A stretch of 64,000 bases of DNA from Elsinoe ampelina (GCA_010093995.1 ML992509.1:1077850-1141849); one strand, 5' to 3'. Shown: positions 13,448-21,317, counted from the first letter of the stretch. The notes: generated from the letters alone by a model not told the origin. Numbers and translations: made by a program.

Positions 13448-14303
13448 ATGATCCAAGGGCATGCGACAGGCATGCTGGGGGAGGGTGAGCGCCGCATCAA
13501 AGACCCATTTCCTCTGCGGCAGACTGATGATTTCAGATGGCATTCACATTGACATGAACCACCTCAAGAGCGGCGAAGTCAAGTAAGCATCTCCTCTCCA
13601 GACCACGATGTCAAATGCTAACACCAGACGCAGCCTAGGCACATCCATGTCAGTACCTTCCCCTTCCTACCACCCAGCACACGCCTAATTCCCCTCCAGC
13701 ATGGCTATCAACTTCAAAGACGGCGTTATTCTCGGCGCCGATAGTCGCACCACAACCGGCGCCTACATCGCCAACCGCGTCACCGACAAACTCACACAAG
13801 TCCACGACACGATCTGGTGTTGCCGATCCGGTTCAGCCGCCGACACCCAAGCTGTAGCCGATATGGTCAAGTACTACCTCGAGCAATACGGCGTGACCGA
13901 AGACGAAGCCCCCACAACACAGACGGCAGCGGCGTTATTCCAGGAGATCTGCTACGGGAACAAAGACATGTTGAGCGCGGGCATCATCATCGCGGGGTGG
14001 GATCACAGGCATGGTGGGCAGGTGTACTCGATACCGCTTGGGGGGTCGTTGCATAAGTCGCCTTACTCGATTGCTGGGTCGGGATCGACGTATATCTATG
14101 GGTACTGTGATGCGAACTGGAGGGAGAATTTCACGGAGCAGGAGGGGATTGATTTTGTAAAAGGGGCGTTGAGGGAGGCGATCAAGTGGGATGGAAGCTC
14201 GGGTGGTGTTATCAGGCTGGTGGTATTGACGGCGAGAGGAGCGCAGAGGCATTTGTACCTGCCTGACAATGGTTACACTGGGCCGGGACCAAAGGATCCA
14301 TGA
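13448..14303 (+). CDS. PRE3: 20S proteasome subunit beta-1
   Basis: Spliced 5' exons rebuild the propeptide ..[69 protein letters not shown]. Confidence 0.95.
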
Positions 14304-14500
14304 GCAGGAACGGAGGTCGAGGTGGCATAACGGATCCAAAAGAGTGCTCAATTAAGGCATGGCATTCACTGGAGACAATTGCGGACATTCTCCACAACCC
14401 ACTAGACGAATGCATTGAACATGAAGCACGGAAGAATTGTTCTATACCAAATTTTGTACCCCGAAAGCTATGCACAGTATTGTCACGGTCGATTGACACC

Positions 14501-15747
14501 CTACTTCCGCCCGGCCTTTGCTCTGCGCTTGCGAGCTTCCCCATTCGCGTTGACACTCGTGGCTGCTTCGACAGCATTCTCTTCTGAGGGCGTATCCACC
14601 ACATCAAACAGATCATCGCCCTCACCATCAACCGCGTCCTTGTTGAGGTACTTGCCCACCGACTTGTTGTACGCCCATCTGGGCAGCTTGAACAGGACCG
14701 TGTCGTAGATTGTCGGCTGAGCAATCTCATTGGGCTATACAGGTCAGCACAACATCCCTCATACATGAATGCACCACTCACATCAAGCAAAAACTCCTGC
14801 ACATCACCCTCCTCCGTCTCCTCCTCCAACCACACATTCCCCACACTGTCCACAATCAACACCTTCCCGTTCTCCGCCACCGTCCTCTTCTTCGCCCCCA
14901 CCGGCCCATCCATCCTCACATCCAGGGGCTCGCTAACACCCACCTCCTTCGCCTTCTGCGCCGCCTCCTTGCTCTTCTTCGGCCTCCTATCCTCCCTCTT
15001 CTTCTCCTTCATCGCCGCCCTCTTCTCCCTCCTGTTCCAATTCATCGCCTGCGCAGGCTCGTCCTCACTATCCTGCGGCGTAGGCAGGCCGGCAGACCCA
15101 CTCCCTCCCAACCCAGGGATGCCGGCAACCGCACTCTCATTTCCCCACGCCATGCGACGGGCGTGCTTGACGTAGCGCTCCACGAACTCGCGCTGTTTCT
15201 TCCACCCGATGTACAAGGCCAGGTAGTGGAAGCCGCCTCCCACGCACACGAAGAGACCGAAGAGCACGGAGCCGAGACCCGGGCGGAAGCGCGCGTAGTA
15301 ATACCCCGTGCCCCGCCATTTGGGGAAGCCGTTGCTGAGGAAGTGGTCGTAGCGAGAGCGTTCGGGCCCGCGGAGGATGTTGGTGATGACGCCGAGGCGG
15401 GCGAAGCGGGCGGAGGCTTCTTTGTTGAAGGCCTTGACTTCGCGCTGGGAGGGTTTCTTGGTGGGGGGCTTTTTCTTGGTCTTGTCGGTGGGCTTTGCGG
15501 CCTTGTCGTAGTTGGAGAGCCAGTTGGCGCGGGCTTTGTCGGGGTGCAGTTGGCGGGATTGCTTGCGGTAGGCGCGGTTGATGTCGTCTTGGGTCGCGGA
15601 GGGTTTGACGCCGAGGAAGGTGTAGAAGGTGGCGTTGGCTCCCTCGTGCTGGATGAGCTCGTCGCGGAGACGGAAGATCTCGTGGTCTTCGGCGGACCAG
15701 GCTGCGGCGAGGAGGAAGAGGGAGAGGAAGGGGAGGAGGAGCTTCAT
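14501..15747 (-). CDS. ER membrane DnaJ co-chaperone (Erj5-like)
   Basis: Signal peptide MKLLLPFLSLFLLAAAWSAEDHEIF; J-domain with HPDK; RYDHFLSNGFPKWRGTGYYYARFRPG followed by a TM helix; intron ~14735-14779; basic C-terminus RKRRAKAGRK*. Confidence 0.9.
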
Positions 15748-16777
15748 GGTGGTGGGTGAGCTTTTGGCTCGGGAATGGTTAGGTGGGGTATCGAGGATGG
15801 AGGTCAATGAAATGGACTAGCAGACTGTTCTGCGTGCCATTCGTGATGCTCAAGGAGAAACTTTTGATCGAGGTTGTGAAAATAATTGTGGTGTTGACAA
15901 CTGGCAGCCTCTCCTGCTCCCTTTTCGTGCGTTCGTCTCGGCTCTGGACCTGGAAATTTTAGGGTTGAGGCTAGCGGGGAGATCTCATGCAGGGCTGCAG
16001 AATGGTCGAGATGGGATGAACAAGAAGCAGGCAAAATACAACCCAGCCCCAAGGAGAAGTTGGGGTCACATTGGTTCAAGCCCTTGATCACCTCTGTGTC
16101 GAAGGGAAAGTCTGCCATTTCATTTGCGGTGCATTGATGTCTGGAAAGGAAAGATTGCTCTGATGGGCATCATGTCTCCTAGCCCATGCTACCAGGATGT
16201 AAGGGTGTAGTAGAATAAGACATCGTACAAGGAGACTTGAGCCAGCCTCCTTGTCCTATTTAGCATACATGATACAGGAAGTAGTACATGTTGTCCATTC
16301 CTCGGTTGTTTCTGCATGAACTGAACTATCGTGCATGAGCTTAATTTTAGGCACATTCGACTAGTCCCATTTTAGCTCGATTGGGTCTTTTGGCTTCAAA
16401 CACGCGGCAGCCCAGAGAAATGTTGACCTGACCGACTCGACCGCAAGGGCACGGCTGCTTTATCACAACCTTTTCTTTCGTTCCTTCACTTTGCTCTACT
16501 TATCTGCCACCTCAACGCCATCGCTCTTTTGTACGACGTAACCTTCACCCGTCGAGACGCTCCCTTCCACCTCACGTTACACCGTTCAGCCGTCGCTGCA
16601 GCCACCAGATAACTGTAAGATCCCCTTAATTTATTCCACCACACATGCCGCATCGCATTTCAAGAAGGCCTTTTCCAGCGCAAAGATGGACTTTATCAGA
16701 CACTGACACAACAGATCAGAATATATTCCATCACAGGACCGCCACCCCAGCATAATTCCATCCATCCCACAACCAGA

Positions 16778-17308
16778 ATGGCAGCAAGACTACAATTCCC
16801 CATCGAGGCGCTGACCTCACGCATCAACTTCTCGCGGTTCGAGGGCATGCGCAATCAAAGCATCTCGAATCGCTTCTCCAACCTCAAGCCTGTATCCGAG
16901 TTCCTCGACTTCAAGCGCTTGTCCAAGCCTGCCAACTTTTCCGAAGCTCAAGCCCGAGTCAACTACAACCTGAGCTATTTCTCCAGTAACTACATGGTCG
17001 TCTTTGCCATGCTTACGATCTACACGCTCTTCACCAACTGGCTGCTCTTCTTTGTCATTCTTCTCGTCACCGGAGGCATGTGGGGAATCGGCAAGCTCGA
17101 GGGCCGTGACCTGGACGTGGGCTTCTTCCGCGCTTCTACCTCTCAGCTTTACACCGCACTCATTTGCATTGCTGTCCCTCTCGGCTTCATCGCAAACCCT
17201 CTTGGCGCTGCTCTGTGGCTCATCGGAGCTTCTGGCGTCTCAATCCTCGGCCACGCAGCCTTCATGGACAAGCCTATCGAGTCGGCTTTTTCCGAGGAGG
17301 CGGTCTAA
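16778..17308 (+). CDS. YIP3: PRA1 family prenylated Rab acceptor
   Basis: 176 aa; EFLDFKRLSKP, RVNYNLSYFSSNY, hydrophobic hairpins, C-terminal HAAFMDKPIESAFSEEAV; probable 5'UTR intron ~16615-16714. Confidence 0.93.
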   Translation: MAARLQFPIEALTSRINFSRFEGMRNQSISNRFSNLKPVSEFLDFKRLSKPANFSEAQARVNYNLSYFSSNYMVVFAMLTIYTLFTNWLLFFVILLVTGGMWGIGKLEGRDLDVGFFRASTSQLYTALICIAVPLGFIANPLGAALWLIGASGVSILGHAAFMDKPIESAFSEEAV

Positions 17309-18693
17309 GTGGTCGTCCGCGAGCTCCACAACCTTTGCCCTATGGGGGAAGACCACATGAGAGACTATCCGATTATGACGGTCCTCAGCTTCGGCGGCGG
17401 CGCAAGTTTTGGGATAATGGAAAAGGTGGGCTACAAATGGTTGACGACGATGATGATTCTGTTCGGCTGGATCCGGCGTATCTTCTGCAGTCTGCAGGGG
17501 AGTATGCTGAATTCGTTGGTGATCAATTACAATTTACTGGATTTGATTTGGGAGGCGCAAGGCGTTCAGGAGGACAGGATATACTAGACGACGGTGCATC
17601 TGTGGCGGACTATGAAGATCAGTGGGAGATTGAGCGTCAGCGGTACGCTTCGCATCTTCGGGCTATGAAGGAGCGAGACAAGGCGCTGGTCAAATCAGCC
17701 AACGACAAGATGAGACGTGCTCGGGAGAAGGGCAAGTCACGGGCTTCACTTAGTCCGGACGAAATTGAAGCTTTGGAGCGACGACGACTTCTGGAGAAGC
17801 AGGAATCGCCACGTTCTTTGGCGACCAAGGATCGGCGCAGCTCATCTGGCAAGAACTCACGATCTACATCTGCAAGCAACCTGGCAGTGGACAAGACACG
17901 ACGCAAGTCTGGGTCGAGATTCTTCTCATCACCTGCGGCCAACTCTTCACGAACTCGGATACCAAAGACCTCGCCCAAGCAGTCTCGTCATGCTTCTCTC
18001 GACAATACTCATGGCCCTCGCGGCGCTCCAGGTTTTGTGGTTCCCGGTCCCGATGGTCAGCCCATGTACTCTCCCTTGCCCTACTACCCACCTTCCTCTT
18101 ATTCTCGGTCCGATGCCCGGTCCACCTCCACCAGCTCGGTGCGCCATATCCCTCAAGACTACCAAGGCGGCTATGTCCCTTACTCACCACGCTATTTCAC
18201 TCCTCAAGACTACAAACCTACTTCAACCACTACCTCTCGCCGAAGTCCGCCTGACGAGCTCCACCTCCCGCGCACTCGGGAGCGTGCGAGCAGCTCCGTC
18301 CCCTACCCTTCTGACCCTCATCTAAGAGCGGGCTCCAGTAGTCATGCGCGACGCAACGTCAGCGGTCCCGCTGGTACAAGCTACGACCGTCATCGGCGTA
18401 CGCCGACTAGCCCGCTGGCCGAGTACCCCGCTCGCGGAGACAGTCTGGGCAAGAGGGCGGAGGACTTCGAAGTGCATGACGAGGACGAAGGGAGTAGCGA
18501 GGGCGTCCTGGTGATCAACGATGAAGGGGAGAGCGAGGGAAGTGATAGTGACGAGGAAGGTGTCAAAGTAGAGGTAAGTCTGGATGGTAGGGATGGGTAC
18601 AAGATCGAGCGTGTGCCGGTGGGTGGGAGAAGGGAGAAAGACCGCGAGCGAGACAGGGACAGGGAGAAGGACAGGAGGAGGAAGCGAAGATAG
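17290..18693 (+). CDS. Low-complexity (Ser/Pro/Arg-rich) ORF overlapping the YIP3 3' end in the -1 frame; possible frameshift extension of Yip3
   Basis: Stop-free frame 17164-18693; first in-frame ATG at 17437; coiled-coil-like ERDKALVKSANDKMRRAREKGK..EIEALERRR; acidic block and RD/RE-rich basic tail. Confidence 0.75.
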   Translation, partial: FRGGGLSGRPRAPQPLPYGGRPHERLSDYDGPQLRRRRKFWDNGKGGLQMVDDDDDSVRLDPAYLLQSAGEYAEFVGDQLQFTGFDLGGARRSGGQDILDDGASVADYEDQWEIERQRYASHLRAMKERDKALVKSANDKMRRAREKGKSRASLSPDEIEALERRRLLEKQESPRSLATKDRRSSSGKNSRSTSASNLAVDKTRRKSGSRFFSSPAANSSRTRIPKTSPKQSRHASLDNTHGPRGAPGFVVPGPDGQPMYSPLPYYPPSSYSRSDARSTSTSSVRHIPQDYQGGYVPYSPRYFTPQDYKPTSTTTSRRSPPDELHLPRTRERASSSVPYPSDPHLRAGSSSHARRNVSGPAGTSYDRHRRTPTSPLAEYPARGDSLGKRAEDFEVHDEDEGSSEGVLVINDEGESEGSDSDEEGVKVEVSLDGRDGYKIERVPVGGRREKDRERDRDREKDRRRKRR

Positions 18694-19041
18694 TGGCTTT
18701 CGTTGTATCGGTAGAGGATGGATTGCATGCCTGGCGTTCATATAGAGTTGCGACAAGAAATGGTGCTTTTGTATTCATACATTGCCTACTCCTGAAATGC
18801 TTCGGTGGCTCCATCATGCTTTTGCCTCTGTCCCTTTGCAATCATCCTCATTCGCGCTTGATATCCTGTCGTGCACGCATCTACTGTCTTGCTTGCCAGA
18901 CGCTCTCATTCCTCCCACTCTTCCCCCTCTATGCCCTCCCCTCGCGCGCATGATCCTCATACTCTTCCTCCCCTCCTCTTCCTCCCAATCACGTCTCCCC
19001 TACCCGCCCCCCCTCACCCCTCCCTTCCTTTCCGTCTGAAC

Positions 19042-19318
19042 TCAAGAAGAAAACCGATCAAAAACCACCCTCACCAACTCAAACACCAATCCCCCGCACA
19101 CGACGAATATGAGCGCGTACACCCACCCCTGACTGATCGGGCTCTTCTGCGGTGCTCGTTTCTGCTTGATCGCGCCTTCAGGCTTGCCACGCTTGCTTGC
19201 TTCGGCTTTGGCGAAGGCTTCGTTTGCGCGGCGTTGTTGGGGGGTTTGGGCCTGGGGGAGGGGGGGTTTAGCAAGTGGCCAAGAGGGAGGGTAGAAAGAC
19301 GGGGGATAGGCGTACCAT
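19042..19318 (-). CDS. RAMP4/SERP1/Ysy6-like tail-anchored ER protein (not in the ORF track)
   Basis: ATG|GTACGC intron ..GCTAAA..CAG|, then AQTPQQRRANEAFAKAEASKRGKP..KSPISQGWVYALIFVVCGGLVFELVRVVF..*. Confidence 0.85.
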
Positions 19319-19805
19319 TGTTGTATGTAGTTGTGGTCGCTAAGGGGGGAGCGAGAGTTGTTGTTGGAGAGCTTGTATTGCGTGGATGTTTGGTTGGGTC
19401 TTTATGGTTTGTTGTATTGATTTAATGACTCGAAGTGAAGGGATGGTGACTGTCCAGGCAGAAGCAATTGGGTCGATTGGGCTGGTATAGAATGCGATGG
19501 TACAGTTAGTCGACCATTTACATGTGGCCCTAGCGTTGTGAACTCAGAGGACAGCTGGACCTCCGGAGCTGTGGGAGAGTTCAGGGTCCGAGGAAATTAA
19601 TTGCGGCTCTGGTTTTACGGTTGGCGATAAGAGGGACGGCGCGGGAACACGGTACGCATGATAGTCAGGTGTGCAGGCATGTGAATTCTTGGTGGTCATG
19701 CGCTATCTGATTAATATCGTGACCACATAGCTTTGCTCACGACGCGAGGGAGCACTACACCATTGCAGCGGGTCCATCTTCAGAGAGTTACCACGGATAT
19801 ATACC

Positions 19806-20658
19806 ATGGCCGCCATCAAAGCAACAGAGACCGTACCGCGATTTTTACTGCCCCGCCTGTCCTGGACCCCTCTCAAGAAACCTTCTGTATGGTCTGGCAA
19901 AGAGCTTCGACGCTCAGCAGCACAGCGCGTGCAAGCAAGAGCTTTGTCAGCCGCGGTGTACCACAATGCTAGGCAGGACAGGCGTTCAAGCAGACCTACG
20001 CCGAACAGCACTCCAGATCGCAGGGCAGCATGGCAGCAACGCTGGTTCTCAGCCTCTGCGCGAAGAGCAAGGGACCACCACTTCGATACGCTCAAGTTTG
20101 TTGAGAGACTACAAGAAGAAGGCTTCAGCGAGGAGCAATCCGTCGCGCTCATGAAGATTCTCGGCGACGTGGTGGAAGAATCGATCTCCAACCTGACACG
20201 AACCATGGTGCCACGGGAAGAGCAGGAGAAAGCAACGTACACACAAAAGGTGGACTTTGCAAAGCTTCGGTCTGAGCTGTTGTCTGCAGATAGCACAGAG
20301 TCGGGTCTGACACGGTCGAGTCACGAGAGGCTGACCAATGATCTGGCAAAGCTGAACAGCAGGTTGAGGGATGAGATTCAGCGGACGCAAGCTAGTGTCA
20401 GGCTGGATCTGAGCTTGGAGAAGGGGAGGATTAGGGAGGAGGCGAATAGTCAAGACTTGAAGATCAAAGAGGTGGAGACTAGGATCGAGCAGGAGACGGC
20501 TGCGTTGAGGGAGAGGTTGGAGCAGGTCAAGTTCTCGACGCTGCAATGGTTGATGTGAGTATCTTGAGGTTTATGGCCGAGGAGAGCTAATGATGTTTAG
20601 GGGCGTTTGTACAGGTACAGCGGCCATCATTCTTGGTGTGTGGAGGCTGTTGATGTGA
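19806..20658 (+). CDS. Mitochondrial CCDC90/Fmp32-like (DUF1640) coiled-coil protein
   Basis: Arg/Ser-rich presequence; HHFDTLKFVERLQEEGF, YTQKVDFAKLRSE, VRLDLSLEKGRIRE; intron 20555-20600; terminal TM GVCTGTAAIILGVWRLLM*. Confidence 0.88.
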
Positions 20659-21317
20659 AGGATACTCGCATGGCATCTATAACATGTCGCAAAGGACGGC
20701 CTTGATGGACTCGGTACTAGAGTGGCATGCAGCTTGTTTCGAGTGCAGCGCTGTGGTGTTGTTGCACTGAGCAGAAAACCCGTGCATTAAGGTTGTAAGC
20801 GCGTAGATAGTGGTCAATGGAACCTAGAAAGGACCGACCCACGAACACAGTTCCTGATAGGTACTGTATCACGAGCGCAAGCACTCACAGTGTCGAGGAG
20901 CGAAGAGAAAGAACAGTGGTGGCGCAGGTCTAACGAATACTTGCATACTGTCGTGTAACAATAGCAATGGAAGCACGCGGTTGCCATCATACAACGTGTG
21001 GCCATGTTATCAAAAAATCAATAAACAGAAGGGTGGAGTGTTCCCAGTTTCTGGACCATCCAATGAGGCGGAGCACAAGCAGGCTCCGACAGGTTCTCTT
21101 CCTTCTTTCGTAAGGTTCGTTCGCGGGGGAAAGACGTGGACGTGATTTCCTTGGCGCTTTGCTTGTGGGAGCCCGCGACCCGTTGTCACTGCAATCTCCC
21201 AAAACGAACATCACCTCTTTCAAAGCTCCCACTCACCTTACGACACATCACACGATCTCCCAATTCAACCTCACTTCTCCTCATCTACAATCCCCTTGAT
21301 TCACAGCGTCAAACACG

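Follow-up and report, generated by a model that had tools for sequence, protein, structure and literature searches.

A YIP3 gene of Elsinoe ampelina with a probable programmed −1 ribosomal frameshift, orthologous to the Podospora anserina PaYIP3 recoding gene

The 64,000-nt stretch of Elsinoe ampelina DNA analysed here (GCA_010093995.1, ML992509.1:1077850-1141849; hereafter the window, with positions counted from its first letter) carries, on the plus strand, a YIP3/PRA1 gene whose short open reading frame (ORF) is overlapped and continued by a long open frame in the −1 phase, referred to below as ORF2. The YIP3 ORF (16778..17308) extends from the ATG at 16778 to the TAA at 17306-17308 and encodes 176 amino acids (aa), of which residues 32-172 match the PRA1 family PF03208 with an E value of 2.6e-38 (131 bits, against a Pfam cut-off of 30.1). 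The initial annotation of this DNA proposed that ribosomes slip by −1 near the end of YIP3 and so fuse it to ORF2 on one mRNA; the YIP3 3′ end that it gave, GCT TTT TCC GAG GAG GCG GTC TAA, and its heptamer T_TTT_TCC at 17287-17293 are both as found in the sequence. It also had the −1 frame open from 17164 to 18693; the end holds, but the frame opens 54 nt further upstream, its stop-to-stop extent being 17110-18693 in overlap with YIP3. The first ATG of this frame, at 17437, does lie 128 nt past the YIP3 stop. Read in the −1 phase from C17293, the extension (17293..18693) begins RGGGLSGRPRAP..., comprises 466 codons and a TAG, and ends ...DRRRKRR; the predicted fusion would have about 638 aa instead of 176, the size originally estimated.

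The slippery heptamer (17287..17293) consists of the last base of codon 170 and of codons 171-172. By itself it is not above chance, as TTTTTCC occurs ten times in the window, five times on each strand; a 22-nt conserved motif that takes in slip site and stem is present as a single copy in the window and was found in none of 100 shuffles. A 2-nt spacer (GA; 17294..17295) separates the heptamer from stem 1 (17296..17327), in which GGAG-GCGG at 17296-17303 pairs with CCGC at 17317-17320 and CTCC at 17324-17327, with a GAG bulge at 17321-17323. This stem, with GGAGGCGG as its 5′ arm, is both the minimum free energy (MFE) and the centroid fold of 17294-17330, at −10.8 kcal/mol. In a proposed pseudoknot stem 2 (17309..17356), paired by hand, GTGGTC within the loop of stem 1 (17309-17314) would pair with GACCAC at 17351-17356.

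A frameshift proposed for the YIP3 homologue of Podospora anserina had been mentioned in the initial annotation, and the precedent exists: the long form of PaYIP3 (Pa_1_8470) is made by programmed −1 frameshifting (Malagnac et al., 2013, PLoS One 8:e73772, PMC3777964), and that paper (its reference 21) credits the first observation of it to the description of the P. anserina genome (Espagne et al., 2008). As described there, the PaYIP3 mRNA is formed by the YIP3 ORF and a larger 3′ ORF limited to the Pezizomycotina; slippage is proposed to take place on U UUU UCC at codon 170, and 2 nt past it lies a stem-loop or pseudoknot that has a G-C stretch at its base and whose stem 1 carries a conserved bulge of 3 nt (Malagnac et al., 2013). 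The sole intron, of 173 bp, is in the 5′ untranslated region (5′UTR), none of 12 independent cDNAs differed from the gene, and a GFP fusion of full long-form size was detected from the wild-type allele; in the perithecial centrum no long form was seen (Malagnac et al., 2013). The locus in the window shares with PaYIP3 a PRA1/YIP3 5′ ORF and, as a 3′ ORF in the −1 frame, an extension confined to the Pezizomycotina; U UUU UCC within a few codons of the stop, the 2-nt spacer, the G-C-based stem with its 3-nt bulge and a possible pseudoknot; and a sole intron in the 5′UTR, with an mRNA that is not corrected by splicing. Each of the sequence features described for PaYIP3, the pseudoknot as a possibility only, is matched by the window, in support of the proposed fusion of YIP3 to ORF2. 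The two differ in that the host of the window belongs to another class and order (Dothideomycetes, Myriangiales), the 5′UTR intron is of 105 nt and not 173 bp, the slip is at codons 171-172 instead of codon 170, no in-frame ATG lies near the slip site in the window, and the window gene is known from its sequence and contigs alone. Given this matching precedent in print, the locus is the Elsinoe-lineage orthologue of the PaYIP3 recoding gene, a system whose mechanism and conservation in the Pezizomycotina are already described in Malagnac et al. (2013). PaYIP3 is mentioned in a 2022 review, and no later experimental follow-up of the PaYIP3 frameshift was found in the literature searched, which left subscription journals largely outside it.

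Scanning metagenomes with the ORF2 alignment gave 36 loci, 33 of which have YIP3 directly upstream; the other three (L023, L024 and L034) have no YIP3 match, and two of them, L024 and L034, begin in the middle of ORF2. The upstream ORFs are 58-80% identical to the window YIP3 in the 30 loci in which they are nearly whole, and the remaining three hold the 3′ part only. Many of the 33 loci are closely related and come from a few related sample sets, so that the effective number of lineages is below 33. The phase of ORF2 relative to YIP3 is −1 in 33/33 loci, and in all of them no stop interrupts the −1 frame past the slip site for 332-460 codons or, in four loci, up to the contig end. The heptamer is TTTTTCC in 32 of the 33, in line with the lineage conservation originally suspected; it is TTTTTCA in one (L008, 334-340), with the rest of the signal unchanged. 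When reduced to 18 distinct junction sequences, GCTTTTTC is invariant in every one, the last base of the heptamer being C in 17 and A in one (L008), and 50 of 78 columns do not vary. The suppression of synonymous variation, which the initial annotation had suggested looking for together with a constant phase, is also seen: in an alignment of 24 distinct sequences over 762 nt, identity at third positions of the YIP3 frame amounts to 0.48-0.73 along the gene, against 0.84, 0.96 and 0.86 for the three bins of 30 nt over 17264-17353, and the only invariant runs of at least 8 nt are at 17285-17294, 17296-17307 and 17346-17354.

All eight pairs of stem 1 are invariant over 15 distinct rows. For stem 2, 97.8% of the cells pair in the same 15 rows, the figure for the alignment as a whole being 99%; its outer pair (25-72) is GU in seven rows, GC in four, AU in three and another combination in one, and the changes are one-sided, at two pairs. 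Both stems are compatible with these data and with the verbal description of the Podospora structure (Malagnac et al., 2013). At one position the window stands apart: 17316 is T, and the equivalent base (column 32) is G in 17/17 other distinct junctions, where it could, with the G preceding it, lengthen stem 1 (U-G, C-G); in the window this lengthening is interrupted.

Contigs of four public runs (X1, X3, X5 and X6, from three studies) were compared with the window over 14000-21000. The library type of these runs is not on record and the RNA label is a guess; we nevertheless take the contigs to derive from spliced RNA, as they join across four introns with GT..AG borders, or CT..AC for minus-strand genes. 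In each run a single contig covers both ORFs (X1, 16474-18772; X3, 16507-18668; X5, 16511-18670; X6, 16489-18773), and the only joint in these contigs, found in 4/4 runs, is 16614/16720, which skips a GT..AG intron of 105 nt in the 5′UTR (16615..16719). Elsewhere they show no inserted, deleted or differing base relative to the window, no splice was found in them at the YIP3/ORF2 junction, and none at the GTAAGT at 18577. The RNA assembly is unspliced across the junction, as the initial annotation expected, and unedited there. The first 5′UTR exon (16474..16614) starts at 16474 at the latest, the contigs beginning at 16474 (X1), 16489 (X6), 16507 (X3) and 16511 (X5); the 3′UTR extends at least over 18694..18772, the X1 and X6 contigs ending at 18772 and 18773, and separate contigs of low depth, a quantity that is not comparable along a contig, reach about 19000.

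ORF2 is a true coding region, with 32 homologues at E ≤ 1e-3, the best at 8e-259. The top matches are hypothetical proteins of E. batatas (P0001; 418 aa, 97% identity) and E. fawcettii (85%), followed after Elsinoe by other Myriangiales and Dothideomycetes. In seven of the 32 matching models, of 574-641 aa, PF03208 and the extension occur together; in the six of these that were aligned (P0013, P0023, P0024, P0026, P0027 and P0029) the sequence across the junction is ..FFRGGGLGGRPR.P.., identical to the −1 peptide of the window. Several of the fused models are without a few residues immediately before the junction, and the gaps look like invented small introns. Most other entries are free-standing models that begin at whichever ATG is present. 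No Pfam family was detected on ORF2 or on the stretch before its ATG, and the nearest Atlas clusters hold ORF2 relatives named 'Prenylated Rab acceptor 1', without a common Pfam family. Arg, Ser, Gly, Asp and Pro abound in the extension; S, P, G, R, Q, E, K and D together account for 67% of its residues, and it has 86 K+R against 73 D+E and a basic tail, DRRRKRR. AlphaFold2, run on ORF2 with a 22-row alignment, gave a mean predicted local distance difference test score (pLDDT) of 50.9, and the sole part predicted with confidence is a helical hairpin (17602..17805) with helices at extension residues 104-145 and 155-171 and a pLDDT of 88-96 over residues 110-170. Most of the invariant columns (L132, A136, A143, G147, L153, E157, A160, E162 and R165) fall within it. 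The extension is therefore predicted to be mostly disordered except for this one conserved hairpin.

We consider it highly probable that, as for PaYIP3, the two frames are joined on a single mRNA by programmed −1 ribosomal frameshifting at 17287-17293. One mRNA, whose sole intron is in the 5′UTR, would carry YIP3 and ORF2; the majority of ribosomes would make the 176-aa PRA1/YIP3 membrane protein and stop at the TAA at 17306-17308, and a minority, on meeting the bulged G-C-rich stem, possibly a pseudoknot, 2 nt downstream, would slip by −1 on U_UUU_UCC and read 466 further codons in the −1 frame to give a protein of about 638 aa. What is observed at this locus is the set of sequence features, with the conservation and phase of these, and RNA contigs that cross the junction unspliced and unedited; by analogy with Podospora, the slippage itself would be of low efficiency (1% in the yeast reporter; see below) and the long form a minor isoform, presumably at the same ER (endoplasmic reticulum)/Golgi-like foci as the short form and unable to replace it. 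Two routes for the slip were put forward for PaYIP3: either tRNA-Ser(IGA) re-pairs from UCC to UUC by way of a G-U pair, or the P-site tRNA alone slips (Malagnac et al., 2013). Either is compatible with a TTTTT that never varies and with position 7 of the heptamer changing once, from C to A.

The YIP3 element shares with −1 frameshifting in viruses (infectious bronchitis virus, IBV) and in the cellular genes Edr/PEG10 and Ma3 the re-pairing of a heptamer in the −1 frame and a downstream structure, and the Edr pseudoknot also has a 3-nt bulge. For IBV, the PaYIP3 paper gives U_UUA_AAC, a 6-nt spacer and an H-type pseudoknot (Malagnac et al., 2013). The YIP3 element departs from this canon in its A-site codon, UCC, which is off the YYZ pattern and needs a G-U pair to re-pair on UUC, in its spacer of 2 nt and not 5-9 nt, and in having no retroviral origin.

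Several points weigh against the reading that we favour. The imperfect A-site, already remarked on in the initial annotation, is real, positions 4-6 of T_TTT_TCC being TTC and not YYY, and the PaYIP3 heptamer is likewise off X_XXY_YYZ (Malagnac et al., 2013); the spacer, as said, is shorter than the canonical range. In a yeast reporter the Podospora element gave 1% frameshifting against 0.3% for an out-of-frame control, and its structure was unable to bring the IBV heptamer to IBV-like levels; moreover, the Podospora long form by itself did not complement the deletion, the short form being enough at the native locus (Malagnac et al., 2013). The existence of a long form in this Elsinoe species is itself argued from the Podospora work. 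The fold of the 37-nt hairpin is not significant against shuffles (z −0.13), and a fold of the 79 nt at 17287-17365, tried as a test of the structure, gave an MFE in which the U run pairs with GGGGGAA, a different fold from the one described above, with a z of +1.15 and 179/200 shuffles folding at least as well. We dropped this last fold as a test, as it is no better than shuffles and the folding tool is blind to pseudoknots. The covariation score was matched by 298/500 shuffles, stem 1 never varying. With stem 1 invariant, the changes in stem 2 one-sided, and covariation and z-scores at the level of shuffles, the structure is compatible with the sample but not independently proven by it, and the dual coding of two overlapping frames could partly explain the strong conservation of this stretch. 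Finally, a contig across the two ORFs is no proof of a single molecule and, as contigs drop rare variants, may fail to show a minor mRNA that is edited or slipped.

Three other explanations of the arrangement were weighed. One makes ORF2 a separate gene, whose translation would begin at the ATG at 17437 by way of an internal promoter or reinitiation and whose overlap with YIP3 would be incidental. The closest database entry is indeed a free-standing protein of 418 aa from the equivalent Met (P0001), the Atlas sequence likewise covers residue 49 on, and an internal transcription start would be compatible with the contigs. However, the 48 codons from the slip site to this ATG form an open frame whose protein sequence is conserved: RGGGL.GRPR.P is found in all loci, and the stretch before the ATG reads RPHERLSDYDGPQLRRRRKFWDN in the window and RSQERLTNYDAAQLRKRRNFWDI in P0006. 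The ATG itself is not a fixture, the first in-frame ATG past the slip site lying at codon 49 in the window and at codon 15, 76, 79, 105, 109, 110, 129, 134 or 162 elsewhere, in L036 past the conserved motifs; as the peptide before these shifting ATGs is conserved, there is no conserved initiation site, a strong argument against an independent start. Together with the −1 phase in 33/33 loci, the mere 128 nt between the YIP3 stop and the ATG, and the full-length GFP fusion obtained from the wild-type allele in Podospora (Malagnac et al., 2013), this makes an autonomous ORF2 improbable. A separate observation concerns the earliest of these ATGs, at codon 15, between the two stems: it is present in 9/18 distinct junctions (L001, L002, L004, L005, L008, L009, L013, L026 and L035), is replaced by TTG in the window and by GTG or TCG in other loci, and is where ORF2 models beginning MPPWGRP.. 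start.

It could also be supposed that the frames are joined at the RNA level, polymerase slippage on the T5 run or editing adding a base to a minority of the mRNAs; a homopolymer run does lie exactly at the junction, and a minority of a few per cent would be invisible in contigs. To our knowledge, transcriptional slippage sites use runs longer than five. No indel was found there in the contigs of the four runs, and the 12 Podospora cDNAs were all identical to the gene (Malagnac et al., 2013). Joining at the RNA level also leaves unexplained the invariant stem 2 nt downstream and the drop to 0.3% with the slippery site out of frame in the reporter (Malagnac et al., 2013), and we regard it as very improbable, more so than an independent ORF2. 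Homopolymer runs are, in addition, typical sites of indel errors, and the two ORFs could in principle be one, split by a single-base error of assembly or sequencing. However, the T5 run, the YIP3 stop and the −1 phase all recur in 33/33 metagenome loci, and contigs from three studies match the window base for base at the junction; an error is thereby effectively refuted and its probability negligible.

The frameshift element might also act as a regulated switch, in which a trans-acting factor on the bulged stem would set the ratio of long to short form, and the hairpin of the tail would be a functional module, such as a partner-binding or degradation signal. A trans-acting factor was raised by the Podospora authors (Malagnac et al., 2013), and the idea fits in that the stem-1 loop and, in the bulge, two of the three bases (G and A) are invariant beyond the needs of pairing and that a 2-nt spacer is shorter than the classical mechanism requires; we nonetheless hold such a switch to be a speculative and rather unlikely addition to the frameshift.

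According to the text of the PaYIP3 paper, the arrangement is conserved in the Pezizomycotina, with Arthrobotrys oligospora and Ascosphaera apis as exceptions; the YIP3 extension of Capnodiales and Ophiostomatales lies in +1, with UUUUU and the pseudoknot both lost in Capnodiales (Malagnac et al., 2013). That text holds no mention of Myriangiales. Elsinoe belongs to this order, in the Dothideomycetidae, the subclass that also includes Capnodiales (NCBI taxonomy). Its locus has the same gene and the same two ORFs as the +1 YIP3 genes of Capnodiales and Ophiostomatales, and, in contrast to Capnodiales, it retains the full −1 apparatus. As part of the speculative reading above, the occurrence of both frames within one subclass would place the change of frame after the split of the two orders.

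In eukaryotes, cellular −1 frameshifts of non-retroviral origin that lengthen a protein are very rare, YIP3 being the published example; the locus described here brings no new mechanism. What it adds is a set of 33 environmental loci and the window, all with ORF2 in the −1 phase and with slip site and stem 1 unvarying except for the one TTTTTCA; a measurement of how strongly synonymous change is suppressed across the signal; evidence at the transcript level from a second class of fungi; and, as a minor point, the persistence of the −1 form in a lineage that shares its subclass with the +1 Capnodiales. For annotation, gene models that split the locus into PRA1 and a hypothetical protein (418 aa in the closest entry), and those that fuse the two by means of invented small introns, are probably both wrong.

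The remaining observations concern the flanks of the gene. In the four runs there is little or no cover over approximately 15880-16470, upstream of the first exon. Further upstream, on the minus strand, lies a gene at 14212-15816 whose translation shows, by eye, a J-domain-like ..LHPDK.. stretch; within it, over 14608-14960, the X1, X3 and X6 contigs differ from the window at eight single bases and X5 at none, a local cluster of strain differences, in contrast to the 2.2-kb YIP3 transcript, over which all four runs agree with the window. Downstream, a short minus-strand transcript at 19065-19544 has a 64-nt intron at 19251-19314 (CT..AC on the plus strand) and the top contig depth of the compared stretch in X1, X3 and X5.

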